This document shows positions 4,025-17,354 of a stretch of 18,246 bases of DNA, piece by piece. How positions within the stretch are numbered: position 1 is the stretch's first letter; each line of letters begins with the position of its first letter. The position numbers and the translations under genes were made by a program. Origin of the DNA: a virus (Duplodnaviria > Heunggongvirae > Uroviricota > Caudoviricetes); IMG/VR virus record IMGVR_UViG_2609459834_000002, positions 1-18,246 of that record. The stretch is one strand, 5' to 3'. The notes beneath the pieces were generated by a model. That model made no database searches. It saw only the letters and a list, made by a program, of their open reading frames with translations, and was not told where the DNA came from.

Positions 4025-4777
4025 TTATCTCGTCACTTTTCTTAATTGCGCCTCAGCATATGCTTCTTCCTGCCAGCACTTTGTCACCAGTTTATCAATG
4101 ACATCTGCATATCCTTTGTACCACTGATAATCCGTCAGGTCTGGTACCAGCTTCTGGACATGATGCCGCGCCAGTGTGGTTGGTAAACGGCTAAACCGGT
4201 TTCCATTGCAACGCCCACAAATCTTATAAACAGGCATGCCATGAAGCCGGGTTCTTTTTTCATCCAGGACAATACCTTTGCCCTTACACCCTCTGCACGC
4301 TGTGCTGACTTCTCCCTTACCATGACAATGCTGACATAGTTCCTTCACCCACTCTTCCTTGATAACAGATTCCCCGTTTCTGGAGTGTTTCACCACTTCG
4401 CGCAATACATTATGAAATCCCGTACCTGCACAATGCTCACAGCGAGCCTTACTTGCCGCAGATCTGGAATAATCAGCAAAGGCAAAATTCACAAGGTAAG
4501 GAATGATCTGTAGCCGGGTTTCTTCACTCAATTTATTCAATGTCGGGTTATCCAGTGCCATCGCGTAATTGAGCAGACCTTCAATCGCAAACTGAGGATC
4601 CTGAACACCAACTTTTGCCAGGAATAAGGCAAACCCAAGCGGTGCTTTCGACTGCACCATCCCCTGCGCAGCCATCACATCCGTAATCGTTAAACCACCT
4701 GAGCCTGTCGCCGGTGCGTCATCGCTCAATTTTGGAGATTTTGGGGAGTAATATTTTGGTAAGGCTTCAAGGTTCAT
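4025..4777 (-). CDS. Late-gene antitermination protein Q (phage 21/82-like Q family)
   Basis: ATG at 4777 with GGAG RBS 8 nt upstream, after trimming a 14-codon in-frame extension. Contains CxxC...CxxC zinc-binding-like motifs (CEHCAGTG, CQHCHGKG, CRGCKGKG, CGRCNG) and sits immediately upstream of the late promoter and lysis cassette. Confidence 0.85.
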   Translation of the reverse strand: MNLEALPKYYSPKSPKLSDDAPATGSGGLTITDVMAAQGMVQSKAPLGFALFLAKVGVQDPQFAIEGLLNYAMALDNPTLNKLSEETRLQIIPYLVNFAFADYSRSAASKARCEHCAGTGFHNVLREVVKHSRNGESVIKEEWVKELCQHCHGKGEVSTACRGCKGKGIVLDEKRTRLHGMPVYKICGRCNGNRFSRLPTTLARHHVQKLVPDLTDYQWYKGYADVIDKLVTKCWQEEAYAEAQLRKVTR

Positions 4778-4790
4778 GCTCGTTCTCCAC

Positions 4791-5786
4791 TTACGCCAGT
4801 ACGCCAATTGCCAGCGCACGATCGATAAAACGAAATATCAGCTCCAGCTGGGAGCCATACTTCTCTTCAAATGCCACGGTATCCGCATGCAGCTCGTCGT
4901 GATGCTTTCTGCACAAAGGCAACACAAAGAGGTCATGCGCTTTTGTTCCCATTCCACCCTGACCGTGACCTATCAGGTGGTGGGGATCATCAGCAGGCTT
5001 ACCACAACATGCACACGGCTGTGTCTTAACCCAGCGCGTGTACTTTTCATTAACCCAGCGGCGACGTTTTGGGCGTAACATAAAAGACTCCGGCGACTCC
5101 GGATCCACTTTCAGCGCCAGCACCTTTTTCGCTTTATCCTGGATAATGCTGGTGGCAGGAACCGAAGGCACAAGGTCACTCTCCCGGGTGACAGACGGCA
5201 CAACAGGCTTCGGTAATCTCAGTGCCTTACGGGCTGCACTTTCCGGTAAGGCATCCGCCAGATCATTACGAACCAGCCACCAACACAGTTCCGGCATTGT
5301 CACAACGTGACTGTCATCAAAACCGAGATCCCGACGCACAACAGACAACACCCAGCGGGCACAGTTATCCGTTGCCATTGATTCCAGCCGTTCCGTGAAC
5401 TGATCGCGCAGCTGGTTATCGCAGTGCCAGCACAGACGGATTGCGCCCGGAGCGTGTCGCATTGTGGTCATGTTCTCGCTGTGCCAGTCGGAATGAGGCC
5501 ACTGGCAGCCTTTTTCACGAAGTAACCAGCTTTCAAGACATTCCACGCCACCAGCACGACGGATCACTGCCTCATTGCGGAACACGGCCCGAACGGCAGG
5601 ATCATCCGCCAGCGGTTGTGATGCCGCCGGAACGGCACCACTGGCGAAAGATGAATAACGTTCCGGCTCAGGCTCCAGCAGAACACGCCCCTGCATAAAC
5701 AGGGGCATCAGCTCTGAACCTGGCCTGAACAATACGATCCCCATACGCGGGGCAATTTCAGGGGTCAGTAGTGCTCTCACGGTCAC
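4791..5786 (-). CDS. DUF968-family protein (YdfU-like) with HNH-like C-terminal motif
   Basis: 331-codon ORF. C-terminus has CACCGKPADDPHHLIGHGQGGMGTKAHD...CRKHHDELH. Recalled as resembling the E. coli Qin-prophage gene upstream of its Q. The first codon at 5786 is GTG directly after the KilA-N stop, so the start is uncertain. Confidence 0.75.
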   Translation of the reverse strand: MTVRALLTPEIAPRMGIVLFRPGSELMPLFMQGRVLLEPEPERYSSFASGAVPAASQPLADDPAVRAVFRNEAVIRRAGGVECLESWLLREKGCQWPHSDWHSENMTTMRHAPGAIRLCWHCDNQLRDQFTERLESMATDNCARWVLSVVRRDLGFDDSHVVTMPELCWWLVRNDLADALPESAARKALRLPKPVVPSVTRESDLVPSVPATSIIQDKAKKVLALKVDPESPESFMLRPKRRRWVNEKYTRWVKTQPCACCGKPADDPHHLIGHGQGGMGTKAHDLFVLPLCRKHHDELHADTVAFEEKYGSQLELIFRFIDRALAIGVLA

Positions 5787-5787
5787 C

Positions 5788-6597
5788 TCAATGAACGGTA
5801 TCGAGCAGCTTTAACAGCTCAGGGAATCGGGATTCGAAGAAATGCGGCTGCGTCTCGCGCGGATTTGCAGGACTGGTGATGTTCTTGCCGAACATGCAGC
5901 CTTTCGCTGTCAGCGACCAGAATTTTTTGATGTTGTTAATCGCAGTGCGGCTGTATCGTTCACGTTGTTCAACGATCCCCAGCTTCGCCATCTGGTGATA
6001 TGCCTGATTAGCTGTCAGGCGGATACCATACTGCTTCAGCAGTGCACTCAATGATAGCGTGGGGCGGCTTGAGCCATCAGGCGCGTCAGCAGGAGCATCA
6101 ATGGCATAGCGTGGTGCCAGATTCGGTAAGCCAACAGCCTCCTGGAGTTTCTGACAGGCACCAAGCACAGATGAGTTAGACAGGTTTAATTCCCGACGCA
6201 TAAAGTCCAGCAGAATCACACCAGCCTGCATCTTGTCAGCAGCCTGCCCGGATAATTTTTCCGGTGCGCTGGTTACCATATCGAAAGTACGGATCACCTT
6301 CAGATGGAATGACGGGCTGATCCACATTGCATAGGCATACACCAGTTCCTTGCAGACATACGTTCCCCGTTCATTTCCCCCATGAATCACACTCACCGGG
6401 TCAACACCCAAATTCTGGGTGTTGGTCAATTCATGAACAAGCTCAACAGTTTGTTGGCTGGAAAGAAACTTTCCCGGCTCCTTGGTTCTGGCATTTGCAC
6501 CAGATGCTACTGCTGCGCGATGCAGATCGTTCAGGCTGTAACGCCCATAAGCATCACGACGAACTTCAATACCATCAATGACCATCAGATTATTCAT
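5788..6597 (-). CDS. KilA-N domain protein (antirepressor-like), second paralogue
   Basis: ATG at 6597 overlapping the RusA stop. N-terminal MVIDGIEVRRDAYGRYSLNDLHRAAVASG is a KilA-N signature; the 170-aa C-terminal domain is unassigned. Confidence 0.8.
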   Translation of the reverse strand: MNNLMVIDGIEVRRDAYGRYSLNDLHRAAVASGANARTKEPGKFLSSQQTVELVHELTNTQNLGVDPVSVIHGGNERGTYVCKELVYAYAMWISPSFHLKVIRTFDMVTSAPEKLSGQAADKMQAGVILLDFMRRELNLSNSSVLGACQKLQEAVGLPNLAPRYAIDAPADAPDGSSRPTLSLSALLKQYGIRLTANQAYHQMAKLGIVEQRERYSRTAINNIKKFWSLTAKGCMFGKNITSPANPRETQPHFFESRFPELLKLLDTVH

Positions 6598-9288: not shown

Positions 9289-9509
9289 GCTGCACCTCCG
9301 AGATGCTTCATGTTTTTTCCGGAGCGAAAGGCTATAAGCGGCATACTGACGCGGTAATTACGGCCCAGCGGTTCACAAACCACCTTCTGACATTCACGGT
9401 CAACCAGGCTAACACGTAGAACATGCCCTGCAGGCGTGGTGTACCACTGACCGGGGCGAGGACAACGGAAAGTCTGATTGGTAAATCGTTTGAAAATATT
9501 CCGGATCAT
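9285..9509 (-). CDS. Hypothetical protein (74 aa), translationally coupled between Rha-like and replication genes
   Basis: ATG at 9509 overlaps the Rha stop (ATGA) and its stop overlaps the replication-gene ATG at 9288 (ATGA). No recognised domain. Confidence 0.5.
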   Translation of the reverse strand: MIRNIFKRFTNQTFRCPRPGQWYTTPAGHVLRVSLVDRECQKVVCEPLGRNYRVSMPLIAFRSGKNMKHLGGAA

Positions 9510-10063
9510 TTGCGCCCCCTTACCTCTGAAGAGTTCAGCGACGAATGAATAAGACGGGCAAGAAATGCCGCATCGTTAATTCGGTCATACAGACTTACAG
9601 CCAGAGGTGATTCAGCTTTTTCCAGCATGGGATAAAGCTGCTGCAACCAGACCTGATGAATTGATGAAATGTAGGAATAGAGAACGCTGGCGTTATGTGC
9701 AACGTCGCTCGGTACAGAGGGCTTTGAAAGCTGTTTCTCCATCTGGTTAAAGGCATTGATGTATGCCTCTTTGAACTGGGCAGCACGTTTCCCCGTGAAA
9801 CCCATAGCAAGAAACGCAAAGCCGTCGCGGGTTATTTGATAGCAAGGAAGTTTGCGAGTACCGCCGTTGGGCTGGCGTACCAAAATTGATGTCTCCGCAA
9901 AATTGCGGGCACAAAACTCTGGAGAACAATCCAAAATGCGGATCTTTTTCAGAACATCGTCATGACGTTTAGAGAAGAAGTCAGCAACAGCCAAAGAAGA
10001 TGTAACAGCCTGACCATCAACGATGGCAATTTCAGGTTGAGAGAGGGTTGGGAGAGTAGTCAT
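9506..10063 (-). CDS. Phage regulatory protein, Rha family
   Basis: Product from the internal ATG at 10063-10061 (MTTLPTLSQPEIAIVDGQAVTSSLAVADFFSKRHDDVLKKIRIL...YQITRDGFAFLAMGFTGKRAAQFKEAYINAF) matches the Rha N-terminal domain. The track ORF extends in frame to 10669; that extension is treated separately in findings. Confidence 0.75.
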   Translation of the reverse strand: MTTLPTLSQPEIAIVDGQAVTSSLAVADFFSKRHDDVLKKIRILDCSPEFCARNFAETSILVRQPNGGTRKLPCYQITRDGFAFLAMGFTGKRAAQFKEAYINAFNQMEKQLSKPSVPSDVAHNASVLYSYISSIHQVWLQQLYPMLEKAESPLAVSLYDRINDAAFLARLIHSSLNSSEVRGRK

Positions 10064-10665
10064 GGTGACAGCCCCGGTAGTCAGTTTTTTAGAAAACTCA
10101 CCACATGGGACGCCAATCACAGAGGTGGTGAGACGTACAGGGTTGGCGTTACCGGAGACTACCGAACCCGGCCCGACCGAAGTCGGCCCTGTACGCCCCA
10201 CCATAATTTGGGCGTAGCAATGCTCATGACACGAAAAAACCGCATGAGCGCGGTTATGCTCAGTAATCAATTTCAGGACGCCAATCCCGGCACCCGTTTT
10301 ATAAGGTGCCTGAACAGTGTAACGTCCCGGAATGGCAGAATCAATGTGCTGGTGGTCCTTCACACTCAACAAAATCACGCCTGAATTTCCACAAAGGACT
10401 AAAGCACTCATGCGGGTAGTCTTTGCGAAGATAGATAACGCGCTGTGTTTCTGGCTCCCAACGAATAACATGAACATAAAGTCCTCTTCCGTCACGAAAC
10501 CAGCGGTTAAGTTCCTGCACAACTCGCCCCCCACAGTCAGGTAAAGTTCTCTGTGGTTACTTACAGCCAGGTGATTTGGTAATCTGCATTCATGCCGTAA
10601 CAACAGGTGTTCAGCGACGCTGACCACCTGTTGTTGCGACAAACGGTTATTTGCCGTTAAACTGT

Positions 10666-11229
10666 TCATGCGTTAGTTTCTCCACAGACACAAAACGCCA
10701 CGACGCCCGGAGCTGCACACTCGCGGGCGTCACTCTTTTCTGGAGCGCAAAAGATTTTGTAGACCAGTGCTGCATGCTCCTGGAGCTTCGAAATTGACAG
10801 ATACAACTCATCATTAATTGCTGTCTGCTCGTGTGGCTCCACTACCCCATCTTCGATTGCCGAACGAATCTGCTTTGAGTAACTCCCGATCTGTTCGATG
10901 ACTTCCAGCAGGCGCTGGTTTATATCGGCGTTCTCTACTTCCTCAATTTCAGGAAGCGATACAAACACCCCACCAGCAGACTGTGCGACAGCATCCGCAA
11001 TGTAGTGAGTGCCAGCCGCGCGCTGTAAAATCATTGCCCATCCCAGCGGGAAAATCTGATCGCCATCTGCACGAAGGCGGTTGAATAAAGCGTTCTCTGT
11101 TACATCCAGCCACTCAGCAGCTTCAGCGTAACCCCCCGGCAACGCCGCGATAGTTTTTCTGACAGCTTTCACGTACCACTCAGGCTGTTTTTCTACTTTC
11201 CAGTGATGCTTACCCACGGTTAGCCTCAT
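10666..11229 (-). CDS. CII-like / YdaT-like regulatory protein (tentative)
   Basis: 187-codon ORF immediately downstream of the cro-like gene on the same strand, the CII position. No strong RBS at ATG 11229; an in-frame GTG at 11217 has GAGG upstream. Family assignment is by position and weak recollection. Confidence 0.45.
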   Translation of the reverse strand: MRLTVGKHHWKVEKQPEWYVKAVRKTIAALPGGYAEAAEWLDVTENALFNRLRADGDQIFPLGWAMILQRAAGTHYIADAVAQSAGGVFVSLPEIEEVENADINQRLLEVIEQIGSYSKQIRSAIEDGVVEPHEQTAINDELYLSISKLQEHAALVYKIFCAPEKSDARECAAPGVVAFCVCGETNA

Positions 11230-11464: not shown

Positions 11465-11536
11465 ATATGTACCTCCGATATACATATTACATGATTGAGA
11501 TGAACCTTCAAGATACTTGTACCCTATCGGTACAAA
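11465..11536. promoter_or_regulatory. Immunity operator/promoter region (OR-like; pR leftward, pRM-like rightward)
   Basis: Two operator-like inverted repeats: 11465-11487 ATATGTA-N9-TACATAT and 11518-11536 TTGTACC-N5-GGTACAA. Candidate pR on minus: -35 TTGAAG (plus 11504-11509) and -10 TAATAT (plus 11482-11487). The cI-like ATG at 11552 has no convincing RBS, suggesting a leaderless or weakly initiated mRNA. Confidence 0.5.
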
Positions 11537-11551
11537 GGTTTTAATTTCGTT

Positions 11552-12226
11552 ATGAAAACAGTCCATGACATCCGGCGGTCTAACGCCAGAAAACTGAGAG
11601 ATGGTGTTGGCGGGAATTCTTCCTTTGCCACCATGATTGATCGCGAGCCAACCCAGACCAGCAGGTTTATGGGGGATGGTGCTACTAAAAATATCGGTGA
11701 CAGCATGGCACGGCACATCGAAAAATGTTTCGACCTGCCTGTCGGATGGCTTGATCAAGAACACCAGACAACAAACATCACAAAAAAACCTGATGTTTCA
11801 ATCACTAACAAACAAATAACGTTAGTCCCTGTCATATCATGGGTACAGGCCGGAGCATGGAAAGAAGTTGGCTATTCTGAGGTTGATTTGAGCACAGCAG
11901 AAACTTATCCCTGCCCTGTACCCTGTGGCGAAATGACTTATATCTTGCGGGTGATTGGTGATTCAATGATTGATGAGTACCGCCCGGGAGACATGATTTT
12001 TGTTGATCCCGAAGTCCCTGCCTGCCACGGTGACGACGTTATTGCATTGATGCACGATACAGGCGAAACCACCTTTAAGCGGTTGATAGAAGATGGAACA
12101 CAGCGTTATCTCAAAGCATTAAACCCAAACTGGCCTGAACCTTACATTAAGATCAACGGTAATTGCTCTATAATTGGCACAGTGATTTTCTCAGGAAAAC
12201 CAAGAAGATACAAAATAAAGGCCTAA
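11552..12226 (+). CDS. CI-like prophage repressor (HTH plus LexA-like S24 peptidase domain)
   Basis: 224 aa. C-terminal domain has the S24 autocleavage-fold motifs (VIGDSMIDEYRPGDMIFVDPE). Divergent from the cro-like gene and followed by a strong terminator. Confidence 0.85.
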   Translation: MKTVHDIRRSNARKLRDGVGGNSSFATMIDREPTQTSRFMGDGATKNIGDSMARHIEKCFDLPVGWLDQEHQTTNITKKPDVSITNKQITLVPVISWVQAGAWKEVGYSEVDLSTAETYPCPVPCGEMTYILRVIGDSMIDEYRPGDMIFVDPEVPACHGDDVIALMHDTGETTFKRLIEDGTQRYLKALNPNWPEPYIKINGNCSIIGTVIFSGKPRRYKIKA

Positions 12227-12239
12227 TCAATATTTATAA

Positions 12240-12260
12240 CCTGCTTCGGCAGGTTTTTTT
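12240..12260 (+). terminator. Rho-independent terminator after the repressor gene
   Basis: CCTGC-TTCG-GCAGG hairpin followed by T7 (12254-12260), 14 nt after the cI-like stop. Confidence 0.7.
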
Positions 12261-12264
12261 ATAC

Positions 12265-12297
12265 TTGACAATGTACCCTCGAGATACATAATGTATC
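12265..12297 (+). promoter_or_regulatory. pL-like promoter with overlapping operator (OL-like)
   Basis: -35 TTGACA at 12265-12270, 17-nt spacer, -10 ATAATG at 12288-12293. The spacer holds a 19-bp operator-like site ATGTACC-N5-GATACAT (12271-12289), overlapped by the perfect palindrome GATACAT-A-ATGTATC (12283-12297). Confidence 0.5.
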
Positions 12298-12575
12298 TAA
12301 AAGAAACATGTCACAGGCAAGATTAAACAAAATTTGGTTGTAACACGGCGTATGGCACATGCGTCGTTAGCGGTCTGGGGACGTTAAAGGGGACAATCCA
12401 CTCCTTGCTCGGGCAAACAAACCAGGTAGCCGGAATGTGCAAGTCAATGATGATGCTGATAAGACGCCTAACCAGCGTGGCGGTTCGGTTTGACACCTGG
12501 GAAGAGACCAGGGTGCAACGATGAGGGCATTTATGGAACCGCGACAAAGTGTGGTGCCGTAACTGGCTAAGTGCT

Positions 12576-12596
12576 CTCAGCGTTGTGGTGAATGCG
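12576..12596 (+). repeat. 21-bp direct repeat, copy 1 (CTCAGCGTTGTGGTGAATGCG), followed by a GC hairpin
   Basis: Differs from the copy at 13204-13224 by one base. Followed by hairpin GCGCA-GGCTGA-TGCGC at 12594-12609. Lies in the roughly 450-nt leader between the pL-like promoter and the first small ORF. Confidence 0.6.
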
Positions 12597-12739
12597 CAGG
12601 CTGATGCGCGAAAGACATTGCAGCTATTGCGGAAAAGAGCTGTTCGGCGGGGCAATTAAACGCCCGTATCTGGAGGTTAAAGAACAAAATGAAAGTCCAG
12701 ATTTTAAACAATAACTGTGAAGTCGTTTGGGCGTAAAAC

Positions 12740-12946
12740 ATGACCGCGCGTAGACCAAGGGAGGAAAAAGTGGGAATAGTTAGAAATCAAGCAGATATAT
12801 TGAAAATCAGCTCTGAATTGCTTGGAGTTTTGAAAAGTGAGCTCACCGCACATGGCATCGAGCCCACTGACGAAAATTTAAGTTGGGTTTTGTCGATTAT
12901 TCAACAATCACTCAAGCCCAGCCTCAGCAAACTTTTTATCGAGTAG
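12740..12946 (+). CDS. Hypothetical small protein (68 aa) at the N-gene position; possible N-like factor or moron product
   Basis: ATG at 12740 lies 3 nt after the stop of a 15-codon upstream ORF (12689-12736, MKVQILNNNCEVVWA, GGAGG at 12672-12676). An in-frame GTG at 12770 has a strong GGGAGG RBS. N-terminus MTARRPREEK is mildly Arg-rich. Sits in a visibly AT-rich island. Confidence 0.4.
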   Translation: MTARRPREEKVGIVRNQADILKISSELLGVLKSELTAHGIEPTDENLSWVLSIIQQSLKPSLSKLFIE

Positions 12947-13099
12947 TGCTTCGAACTTATCGTAAAGCTTGCTTATGTCGTCTATCGGGTTTTCTGACGT
13001 ACTGTAATTTTTATCTGATGTCATGGCAGCAGTCTGATATGCAGTGTGAGTCTTAACCGATAGTTGGAATAAATAAAGAATTTTTTCTTCTTTGGTCAT
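12908..13099 (-). CDS. Hypothetical small protein (63 aa), convergent with and overlapping the 12740-12946 ORF
   Basis: ATG at 13099-13097 with AAGGA RBS 7 nt upstream. Product MTKEEKILYLFQLSVKTHTAYQ...DKKFAEAGLE. Its 3' end overlaps the convergent ORF by 39 nt. No family recognised. Confidence 0.4.
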   Translation of the reverse strand: MTKEEKILYLFQLSVKTHTAYQTAAMTSDKNYSTSENPIDDISKLYDKFEALLDKKFAEAGLE

Positions 13100-13203
13100 G
13101 ACTATTTCCTTCTTGGCTATATGAAAACACCAAGATACCACCGAGCCTGAAGTGGTGAAAAGACAGGCACATAACAGCTAAGTATTTTCAACCAGAGAGA
13201 ATC

Positions 13204-13224
13204 CTTAGCGTTGTGGTGAATGCG
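13204..13224 (+). repeat. 21-bp direct repeat, copy 2 (CTTAGCGTTGTGGTGAATGCG), followed by a short GC hairpin
   Basis: Near-identical to 12576-12596 (20 of 21). Followed by TGCG-GCTCAG-CGCA at 13221-13234. Marks the right boundary of the AT-rich island. Confidence 0.6.
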
Positions 13225-13355
13225 GCTCAGCGCACGCGGGTTAAGGTTGAGGCTGACAGTCGACCTTCTGTGGATACCCACCCGCCTGGTGTGCAACCTT
13301 CGCCAGGCACCGGGAGGCACCCGGCACCACAACTTTATGCTGTGTGTAGTCCTAG

Positions 13356-13400
13356 CGGTACCAGCTTGTACCATTGCTTCCGGCTGGTACCGTCCTTTTT
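13356..13400 (+). terminator. Terminator-like hairpin (tL1-like candidate) upstream of rdgC
   Basis: Perfect 10-bp inverted repeat CGGTACCAGC (13356-13365) / GCTGGTACCG (13383-13392) with a 17-nt loop, followed by TCCTTTTT (13393-13400). The loop is long for a canonical intrinsic terminator. Confidence 0.4.
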
Positions 13401-13565
13401 ACAAAACAGAGAAGAGCATCACCGGACGACGGGCTCATAACCCAATCCACCCGGGCAAAAAGAAAGCGGTCTCTGCAAGCCGCCGACCAATGCAGGTGCC
13501 CTTCTCTGTTGTGTATGGAGAAACTAACTTTTTAGCGCCGGTGCAGAGGCGTTGAGGAACCGAGA

Positions 13566-14483
13566 ATGAACAATCCGTTTTTCAAAAATATGTTGGTGTA
13601 TCGCATTAGTCGCGATTTCACCATCAACCAGGAAGAGCTGGAACAGCAGCTTGAACTATTTCGCTTCACTCCATGCGGTAGCCAGGATATGGCAAAAACC
13701 GGTTGGGTATCACCACTTGGTCAGCTGTCAGATCGCTTGCATCACACTGTCAATAATCAAGTGTTGTTGGTTATTCGCCGGGAAGAAAAAATACTGCCAT
13801 CTCCTGTCATTGCTGAAGAACTGCGCAAGCGTGTGGCGCGTCTGGAATCCGATCAGGGGCGTCGCCTCAAAAAAACTGAGAAAGATTCGCTGCGTGATGA
13901 AGTGTTGCACTCCCTGCTTCCTCGGGCGTTCTCCAAAAACTCGACTGTTAGTTTGTGGATCAACGTCACAGACGGTCTGATCATGGTTGATACAGCCAGC
14001 GCTAAACGTGCCGAAGACTCACTGGCCCTGCTTCGTAAAACTCTCGGTTCTCTCCCGGTGGTACCGCTGACTATGGAAACGCCGATCGAACTAACTATTA
14101 CCGACTGGGTTCGTTCCGGTAGTGCCCCTGCTGGCTTTAGCCTGGGTGATGAAGCCGAACTGAAAGCTATTCTTGTAGATGGCGGTATTGGACGCTTTAA
14201 AAAACAGACTTTGGTCAGTGACGAAATTCATGTGCATCTGGAAGCTGGCAAAGTAGTTACAAAGCTGTCTATCGACTGGCAACAGCGCATTCAGTTCGTT
14301 CTTTGCGATGACGGCAGCATCAAACGCCTTAAGTTCTCTAATGAGATTACAGAACAAAACGACGATATCTACCGTGATGATGCGGCTCAGCGGTTCGACG
14401 CTGACTTTGTTCTAATGACCGGCGAGCTTATCTCTCTCATTAACGGATTAACAACCTCTCTCGGCGGCGAAGCCAAGCGATAA
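13566..14483 (+). CDS. rdgC: Recombination-associated protein RdgC (prophage-encoded homologue)
   Basis: 305 aa with GAGGA RBS 8 nt upstream. Matches recalled E. coli RdgC along its length ([123 protein letters not shown]). Confidence 0.9.
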
Positions 14484-17180: not shown

Positions 17181-17354
17181 TCATGCTGCCTTGCGACGAC
17201 GAAGCTTACCCTGCTGCTCTTTACCAGAGACAATAGCGTGAGTGAACGCGTTAGGAGCAGCCTTCATCAGAACTTCAACAGCAGCACCCATACCTGCGAA
17301 TGCTTTCATTGTGTCGAACTTAACCTGTGGCTTGGTTGCTTTTTGATCTTTCAT
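17181..17354 (-). CDS. Hypothetical small basic protein (57 aa), absent from the ORF track
   Basis: ATG at 17354-17352 with GGGAG RBS 8 nt upstream; stop at 17183-17181. Product MKDQKATKPQVKFDTMKAFAGMGAAVEVLMKAAPNAFTHAIVSGKEQQGKLRRRKAA. Terminator about 20 nt downstream. Confidence 0.5.
   Translation of the reverse strand: MKDQKATKPQVKFDTMKAFAGMGAAVEVLMKAAPNAFTHAIVSGKEQQGKLRRRKAA

Follow-up and report, generated by a model that had tools for sequence, protein, structure and literature searches.

A mis-delimited small gene in an accessory cassette at the N-gene position of an SfII-type lambdoid prophage

SfII, SfV, and SfIV have been reported to lack a recognizable N gene (PMC3851460). Does the small open reading frame (ORF) at the N-gene position of a lambdoid prophage of this kind encode the missing antiterminator? 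The question is raised by the window, an 18,246-nt stretch of DNA that comprises the immunity, early, and lysis region of an SfII/SfV/CPS-53-type lambdoid prophage. A preliminary description drew attention to an ORF at 12740-12946, which would encode 68 aa beginning MTARRPREEK, and suggested a new antitermination factor on the basis of its arginine-rich N-terminus, a tightly coupled 15-codon upstream ORF (uORF), and a nearby nut-like element. The features themselves are all in place: a GGAGG at 12672-12676 upstream of the uORF ATG at 12689, an ATG at 12740 that lies 3 nt past the uORF stop, a GTG at 12770 with its own GGGAGG, and a hairpin. The ORF proves to contain a genuine small gene whose limits had been misplaced and which belongs to an accessory cassette of an ordinary type. 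It has no features of N, its assignment as an N-type antiterminator is not supported, and the published lack of N in SfII, SfV, and SfIV stands.

Pfam matches on the minus strand identify the Q antiterminator (4025-4819), lysis genes, genes for DUF968, KilA-N, RusA, Dam, and PerC, an O-like replication gene, an Ash/Rha gene, a CII-like gene (10666-11229, PF06892), and cro. The plus strand carries cI, encoding an S24 repressor (11552-12226, Pfam Peptidase_S24), and, to its right, rdgC (13566-14483). An intrinsic terminator detected by a terminator scan at the end of cI (12238-12255, plus) is followed by the early-left promoter pL (12265-12292, plus; TTGACA-16-CATAAT, 11 of 12 consensus positions, promoter scan). 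A 20-nt operator-like element at 12271-12290 overlaps pL and is 85% identical to oR at 11467-11486 in the cro-cI intergenic region, and a second operator-like palindrome is common to the two regions. Alignment reveals the same terminator and promoter arrangement after the repressor in Kluyvera L003, which has the same repressor type. Because a near-consensus promoter follows the cI terminator and shares its operators with oR, the plus strand is the early-left direction, and the first gene along it occupies the N slot. The proposed N-gene position is therefore correct: no other conserved protein-coding gene lies between pL and the gene studied here. The intervening pL leader at 12326-12667 (plus) is non-coding and of the mEp460 type, with 99% identity to phage mEp460. 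A minus-strand ORF at 12323-12655 that is annotated in mEp460 has a junk-looking translation.

The window contains 149 ORFs of at least 40 aa, so the flagged features alone are not beyond chance, and a 15-codon ORF that ends beside an ATG is by itself unremarkable. The gene was consequently judged by comparison. Positions 12687-13456 are 99% identical to Shigella phage SfII, and about 3,000 complete E. coli genomes contain pieces of this segment. The comparison set comprised about 60 related loci; the protein family is small (11 clusters and 15 remote hits), which limits comparative power.

Gene Model of the N-Slot ORF

In the part of the ORF that lies outside a 39-nt overlap with an opposing gene, the window, Kluyvera L003, L005, and L006, with protein identities of 66-83%, vary at 24 third, 14 first, and 6 second codon positions, with synonymous changes predominating in the plus frame alone. 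A 3-nt indel among homologues leaves the frame intact. Diverged homologues (64-83% identity) all begin at the position of GTG 12770, where an ATG or GTG stands behind a Shine-Dalgarno sequence despite sequence turnover; upstream of this position, the frame in these loci is closed or has no ATG. In L016 and L048, TTG replaces GTG as the start codon. The predicted anti-Shine-Dalgarno pairing energy is -11.3 kcal/mol for GTG 12770, whose GGGAGG (12759-12764, plus) is separated from it by 5 nt, as compared to -3.1 kcal/mol for ATG 12740; the uORF ATG at 12689 has a value of -10.0 kcal/mol with a 12-nt spacer. A natural variant, L041, carries a 1-nt deletion that takes ATG 12740 out of frame and leaves the ORF from the GTG intact. 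The coding pattern, the conserved start position, the Shine-Dalgarno strengths, and the L041 variant thus define a gene of 58 aa at 12770-12946 (plus strand) rather than one of 68 aa from ATG 12740. The preliminary description was right that the ORF is a gene and that its internal GTG has a strong ribosome-binding site; it is this GTG, however, that is the conserved start.

A search of 5.8 billion proteins returned 11 clusters, most of them of 58-59 aa and aligning from residue 11 of the 68-aa ORF. Profile searching afforded a full-length match to phrog_15476 (E 7.4e-50, residues 1-68 covering all 68 profile positions). The model of this PHROG family, which has no assigned function, takes in the non-conserved extension, whereas the start assigned here lies 10 codons later. 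The 58-aa gene is unannotated in SfII and in the PGAP records of E. coli G5 and K-15KW01, in which the overlapping minus-strand gene alone is annotated, the overlap with the opposite-strand gene being the reason. Every homologue found lies in a prophage or viral setting. In most loci with a detected repressor ORF, the homologue lies 177-577 nt after the repressor stop; in L005, where a second gene pair intervenes, the distance is 881 nt. The position just after the repressor gene recurs in Kluyvera and other loci, and in Serratia the repressor gene is missing and the locus is degraded. A scan of species-representative genomes for the locus of the 58-aa gene returned the Kluyvera locus only.

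The uORF (12689-12736, plus; MKVQILNNNCEVVWA, 15 codons, TAA at 12734-12736) has a different history from that of the gene it precedes. At 86% identity, positions 12687-12757 match the start of an annotated gene of 91 aa that occupies the same slot after the repressor in E. coli O157:H7 F1273 and YD786 (MKVQILNNNCEVVWSYDIAAP..., phrog_3195; WP_021563905.1 in O157:H7). The uORF corresponds to the first 14 codons of this gene and is closed by a new stop. Beyond the stop, a further 20 nt, ATG 12740 included, are still 91-aa gene sequence in another reading frame, and the similarity stops at 12757, where the Shine-Dalgarno sequence of the 58-aa gene starts. A sensitive search of complete E. coli genomes with 12660-12800 detected the whole junction in 63 genomes, whereas in about 409 records the match is confined to 12687-12757 (80-90% identity). 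In G5 and K-15KW01, the GGAGG that stands ahead of the uORF here falls within GGA GGT TAA, the final codons and stop with which a ClpX-type zinc-finger gene ends. A premature stop truncates the uORF in L031, the uORF is lacking in L003-L007 and L054-L059, and diverged homologues have neither the uORF nor the Arg-rich extension. The match to the 91-aa gene, the origin of the GGAGG, and the absence from diverged loci indicate that the uORF, ATG 12740, and the in-frame extension MTARRPREEK (12740-12769, plus) are the stump of a displaced 91-aa gene, that is, scars of cassette exchange.

On this evidence, the uORF is a relic and no conserved regulatory feature, and its stop-start spacing is not conserved with the downstream gene. 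The junction-derived extension has no Shine-Dalgarno sequence and is dispensable in relatives, although a 68-aa isoform could arise in this phage by reinitiation after the relic uORF. Nor is the extension a likely RNA-binding motif: its 10 residues include 3 Arg, 1 Lys, 1 Pro, and 2 Glu, and the conserved 58-aa protein is acidic (5 Lys/Arg versus 7 Asp/Glu, pI 5.2). Recombination junctions between alternative cassettes can evidently mimic a uORF with a coupled start.

AlphaFold2, run with a 10-sequence family alignment, places helices at residues 7-27 and 34-55 of the 58-aa protein with a mean pLDDT of 69. The predicted structure is a compact two-helix hairpin, held with moderate confidence given the shallow alignment; a compact helical fold is part of what the preliminary description itself had named as evidence against an antiterminator. 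The ORF matches no Pfam family at E <= 1, and the protein has no NCBIfam match and no PDB sequence match. A fold search of the model against viral structures and the PDB gave no match at E <= 0.001, helical-hairpin hits being meaningless. BLASTP with lambda N gave no alignment to the ORF at E <= 100. A literature search found no mention of the 58-aa protein or of the 63-aa protein encoded by the opposing gene.

More distant relatives were recovered by a profile search of 1.84 billion representatives, which gave 15 hits to the 58-aa domain. These are detectable down to about 35-47% identity, include multi-domain proteins, and also match the phrog_15476 profile; tblastn of the remote homologues against isolated phages returned almost nothing. 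In several, the domain forms the C-terminal 45-55 residues of phage proteins of 120-200 aa, the N-terminal parts of which belong to unrelated PHROGs (phrog_1744 and phrog_1363). This arrangement suggests a portable protein-binding or dimerization domain. The module recurs behind unrelated N-terminal domains, and its probable mode of action is contact with other proteins, not with RNA. In one representative protein, P0035, the domain follows an N-terminal CSFC...CICSDC (CxxC...CxxC), which reads like a ClpX-type zinc finger by eye from the cysteine motif alone and gives no Pfam hit at E <= 0.1. In G5 and K-15KW01, the 58-aa gene is immediately preceded by a 67-aa ClpX-type C4 zinc-finger gene (PF06689, E 2e-10). 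Together, the P0035 fusion and this adjacent, Pfam-confirmed gene hint at a functional link between the 58-aa module and ClpX-type zinc-finger proteins.

Leader Elements Flanking the Gene

The nut site proposed at 12576-12609 consists of a TGCTCT-like sequence and a hairpin with a 5-bp stem at 12594-12609 (GCGCA-GGCTGA-TGCGC). Positions 12576-12596 are identical to 13204-13224 at 20 of 21 nt, and 12566-12579 resembles 13177-13190. The segment 12566-12609, the last part of the pL leader, is by these matches a partial duplicate of the 5' end of an STnc100-like RNA that lies farther downstream. In the other copy, the TGCTCT is TATTTT. No boxA consensus is found near pL, the sole YGCTCTTW match being at 17215, far from both promoters, and nothing corresponding to the hairpin is present in the pR operon. 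The identification as nut is not borne out.

The STnc100-like structured leader RNA occupies 13180-13402 (plus) and matches Rfam RF02076 over model positions 1-206 of 206, at 43.2 bits versus a gathering score of 47 (E 1.4e-6). The leader RNAs of O157 and YD786 have similar STnc100 scores, and the RNA is conserved in other genera. Its fold includes the terminator hairpin at 13356-13400, which is situated between the 58-aa gene and rdgC. The terminator and leader are 94-99% identical in phages without the 58-aa gene, and the gene is thus probably not required to pass the terminator. The postulated new antitermination factor therefore finds no support from its relatives, just as it finds none from similarity to N. 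We consider the STnc100-like leader RNA a better place to look for passage of the early-left terminator. As a candidate homologue of put, this RNA was rejected: it has no sequence similarity to the HK022 pL-putL-nun region, and the analogy is positional only.

A Convergent Partner and Exchange of the Cassette

The 58-aa gene converges with a 63-aa gene on the minus strand (12908-13099, WP_000159356.1), the two overlapping by 39 nt at 12908-12946. The 63-aa protein is a full-length match to phrog_2605 (E 1e-33), a family of unassigned function, and its gene varies at 35 third, 13 first, and 5 second codon positions, a coding signature stronger than that of the 58-aa gene. Of the 59 loci that carry the 58-aa gene, 57 have an intact partner that overlaps it to the same extent; in the other two, the 63-aa gene is frameshifted and the 58-aa gene is kept. 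Serratia symbiotica has a 140-aa plus-strand homologue together with a convergent, overlapping 64-aa homologue of the partner. The 63-aa protein is likewise predicted to be a two-helix hairpin (pLDDT 73, shallow alignment). PADLOC has no family for either protein, and neither matches a toxin-antitoxin family in Pfam or NCBIfam.

Just upstream of the 63-aa gene start, a motif at 13132-13167 (minus) reads TTCACC-16-TGgTATCTT in the alignment and encloses the inverted repeat ACCAC-N10-GTGGT. It is almost invariant from Escherichia to Serratia, is a unique 31-mer, and is repeated in L005 ahead of the second gene pair. With 8 of 12 consensus positions and an extended -10 TG, it falls below the promoter-scan threshold; we regard it as the putative promoter of the 63-aa gene.

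The gene pair behaves as a unit that is exchanged among relatives. Between the same flanks, O157 and YD786 carry the 91-aa gene in place of the cassette, and the interval from pL to the early-left genes in mEp460 and ST64B contains only junk-looking ORFs, none of which is annotated on the pL strand or makes a convincing protein gene. G5 contains two cassettes in tandem, and L005 contains two plus/minus pairs of small genes with the motif after each. The GC content is 0.38-0.44 in the cassette versus 0.50-0.58 in its flanks. Among the hallmarks of a moron, replacement or absence and low GC are thus seen, and an own promoter is represented only by the conserved 8/12 match with an extended -10; no terminator bounding the cassette was found. 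These comparisons indicate that the two-gene unit is an optional, moron-like accessory cassette heading the pL early-left operon. The fallback offered in the preliminary description, an unrelated moron, comes close to this exchangeable low-GC cassette.

Competing Explanations and Comparison with Known Systems

Our proposed explanation brings these observations together. Recombination installed the cassette, leaving the stump of the 91-aa gene. Upon inactivation of the repressor, pL would fire, and the strong Shine-Dalgarno sequence and GTG would direct immediate synthesis of the 58-aa protein. The pL transcript would run antisense through the entire 63-aa gene, whose promoter-like motif faces pL, such that the lysogen would express the 63-aa protein and the induced cell the 58-aa protein. 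Reciprocal expression of this kind is a tentative proposal, to which we give somewhat less than an even chance. We have high confidence that the gene encodes 58 aa and lies just after pL, that the uORF and extension are relics, that the two genes form a convergent pair subject to cassette exchange, and that features of N are lacking. The explanation as a whole, in which an accessory two-gene cassette is expressed reciprocally, acts by protein contact, and supplies no N-type antiterminator, is our favored one and is reasonably probable.

Two alternatives concern whether the gene exists and whether it is an N. If the plus-strand ORF were no gene, its conservation would mirror the 63-aa gene or an RNA element, as might be supposed from the practice of PGAP and the SfII depositors of annotating the minus-strand gene only, and from the near invariance of 12863-12946 even at third positions. 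This supposition is hardly credible, because in the 114 nt outside the overlap changes peak at the plus-frame third position and synonymous dominance is confined to that frame, the 3-nt indel keeps the frame, the start codon and Shine-Dalgarno sequence persist despite sequence turnover, and remote protein homologues, multi-domain ones included, extend to about 35-47% identity. Alternatively, a 68-aa isoform initiated at ATG 12740 and coupled to the uORF could be a new N-like antiterminator that binds 12576-12609 and passes the 13356-13400 terminator. Its position as the first protein gene after pL, the reported absence of a recognizable N from the SfII/SfV/SfIV group (PMC3851460), the terminator ahead of rdgC, and the 5-bp-stem hairpin all suit this idea, which we nevertheless judge very improbable. 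No diverged homologue has the extension or the uORF, and the extension is out of frame in L041 and derives from the beginning of a different gene. Its basic residues number just 3 Arg and 1 Lys, accompanied by Pro and 2 Glu, the conserved protein is acidic, and neither BLASTP against lambda N nor Pfam gives a hit. The supposed nut is a partial copy of an STnc100-like 5' end with neither a boxA nor a nutR-like second copy, and the terminator, or one related to it, is present in mEp460, O157, YD786, and ST64B, none of which has the gene.

The remaining alternatives concern what the pair does. Strict co-occurrence and a 3' overlap conserved across genera would be expected of a toxin/antidote-like or exclusion/anti-exclusion pair, in which the 63-aa protein of the lysogen harms an incoming phage or the host and the 58-aa protein, made first from pL, neutralizes it to let the phage's own lytic cycle proceed. 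The opposing promoters would give the reciprocal expression that such a pair needs, the two predicted helical hairpins of about 60 aa could form a four-helix heterodimer, and the two loci that lost the 63-aa gene by frameshift and kept the 58-aa gene exhibit the order of loss tolerated for a toxin. We nonetheless consider such a pair unlikely, since there is no PADLOC defense model or toxin-antitoxin family match, neither protein resembles a membrane or nuclease toxin, and the plus-strand partner of distant relatives has extra N-terminal domains, which would be unusual in a simple antidote. Rather unlikely as well, and placed lower still, is that the 58-aa protein is an early modulator of lysis-lysogeny or proteolysis, analogous to lambda CIII or acting on ClpXP, that affects the stability of the CII-like or replication protein. 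The phage has a CII-like gene (PF06892, 10666-11229) and no recognized cIII, and the 58-aa protein, like CIII, is small, helical, and early-left. The CxxC...CxxC motif joined to the domain in P0035 and the 67-aa ClpX-zinc-finger gene directly upstream in G5 and K-15KW01 would fit an action on ClpXP. However, the hhalign probability against lambda CIII is 0.4%, there is no Pfam hit, and the gene is optional among close relatives with the same cII; the zinc-finger reading of P0035 comes from the cysteine motif without a Pfam hit, and the fusion is seen in a single representative protein. As a more speculative extension of our favored explanation, the pair might constitute an undescribed two-protein switch tied to the state of pL, in which the lysogen would make the 63-aa protein and induction would first yield the 58-aa protein, its partner being silenced by antisense transcription. 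The 58-aa protein would then be a portable binding module, possibly with a ClpX-type zinc-finger link, leading to control of host proteolysis or exclusion. This is a long shot, albeit one we rank above the toxin/antidote pair.

For the N-less lambdoid prophages of the SfII/SfV/SfIV/CPS-53 kind, the analysis removes a false lead, in that the N-slot ORF is not the missing antiterminator, and it corrects the gene model from 68 aa to 58 aa starting at GTG 12770. A modest interest remains in the widely conserved small convergent gene pair and the structured leader RNA that adjoins it.

As with the N genes of lambda and phi21 and gene 24 of P22, the 58-aa gene is the first gene after pL and is followed by a terminator before the rest of the early-left operon. 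The likeness ends there. Lambdoid N proteins are about 100 aa long and have an Arg-rich motif, whereas the protein here is 58 aa long, acidic, and without sequence similarity to them. The nutL/nutR sites on which N acts consist of boxA and boxB, of which no such pair is present in either early operon here, and the 58-aa gene, unlike N, is optional in relatives that have the same terminator.

HK022 is a lambdoid phage that has no N and uses cis-acting RNA (putL/putR). The group studied here also has no N, its structured RNA at 13180-13402 lies in the pL leader at the place of putL/nutL, and in both cases a protein that is not an antiterminator occupies the N slot. Nun of HK022 has an arginine-rich motif, in contrast to the 58-aa protein. 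The leader RNA has no sequence similarity to putL, and antitermination by it would be a matter of positional analogy.

A further likeness is to the morons and accessory genes near pL in lambdoid phages, such as lambda rexAB and sieB, although rex and sieB have no homology to the cassette, which moreover is not bounded by a terminator. Like these genes, it is a small, lower-GC cassette that is present, absent, or replaced among near-identical prophages, and one of its genes has a putative promoter of its own and faces against the operon. It differs from them in being composed of two convergent genes with a fixed 39-nt 3' overlap, a unit that is conserved across Escherichia, Kluyvera, and Serratia.

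Sequences flanking the small-gene cassette

Downstream of the pL promoter, the leader sequence GAACAGGCAGGACGCCCACGAAGTAGCCGCC is kept in prophages from SfII through Kluyvera and Serratia, immediately 3' of differing promoters. Among the related loci compared, it was located at positions 5900-5960 of L001, 7895-7960 of L003 (the Kluyvera locus), 7905-7970 of L006, and 5925-5965 of L062. The window lacks this sequence and has an mEp460-type leader in its place. A 40-aa ORF (MRRLMRERHCSYCGKELF..., 12592-12714, plus strand), whose sequence as far as position 12667 belongs to that leader, has a single CxxC and gives zinc-ribbon matches that are all weak. In E. coli G5 and K-15KW01, the slot directly upstream of the relic uORF holds a complete 67-aa ClpX C4 zinc-finger gene. 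This comparison also took in positions 5810-6013 of the related locus L002.

The inverted repeat ACCAC-N10-GTGGT forms part of an almost invariant motif at window positions 13132-13167, immediately upstream of the 63-aa gene, and at 6610-6650 of L062 and 5772-5839 of another related locus, L005. In the last of these loci the motif occurs again, in front of a second pair of small convergent genes. This motif may be a promoter or operator in common, or a recombination linker between cassettes. The 63-aa gene itself is frameshifted by a 2-nt deletion in two IMG/VR contigs (L051 and L052), in which the 58-aa gene is intact.

Antisense RNA and Q elsewhere in the window

On the minus strand, C4 antisense RNA scores 82 bits and isrK 60 bits at 10121-10309, both well above Rfam thresholds, within a long Ash/Rha ORF (9506-10669). 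These matches suggest that an antirepressor module of the P1/Gifsy type, controlled by antisense RNA, lies downstream of the CII-like gene; the same RNA pair is present in phage mEp460. A Q-type antiterminator (PF03589; 4025-4819, minus strand), with a further match to the DnaJ CXXCXGXG zinc-finger domain, is the sole protein antiterminator recognizable within the window.

An STnc100-like RNA in the pL leader

The pL leader contains an STnc100-like structured RNA at 13180-13402 (plus strand), before the early-left genes begin. Lambdoid prophages lacking N carry this RNA in Escherichia, Salmonella (ST64B), Cronobacter (phiES15), Kluyvera, and Serratia, with copies at L003 8478-8612, L009 3021-3243, L062 6712-6842, L064 1501-1781, and L065 1501-1637. 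In phiES15, a G-C pair within the closing helix, GUUGUGGUG/CACCACAAC, is changed to A-U. The hairpin at 13310-13324 reads CCGGG-AGGCA-CCCGG in the window, whereas that of Kluyvera reads GGUGG-AGGCA-CCACC, with both sides altered at three pairs.

A 111-aa ORF (13220-13555, plus strand) overlies the RNA and its terminator; the SfII annotation lists it as protein SfII_35, and PGAP calls it a frameshifted pseudogene. A search for a family match to this ORF returned none, and it probably does not encode a protein. The STnc100-like RNA, whose sequence shows no similarity to HK022 putL, is a candidate for a leader or antitermination RNA acting in cis.
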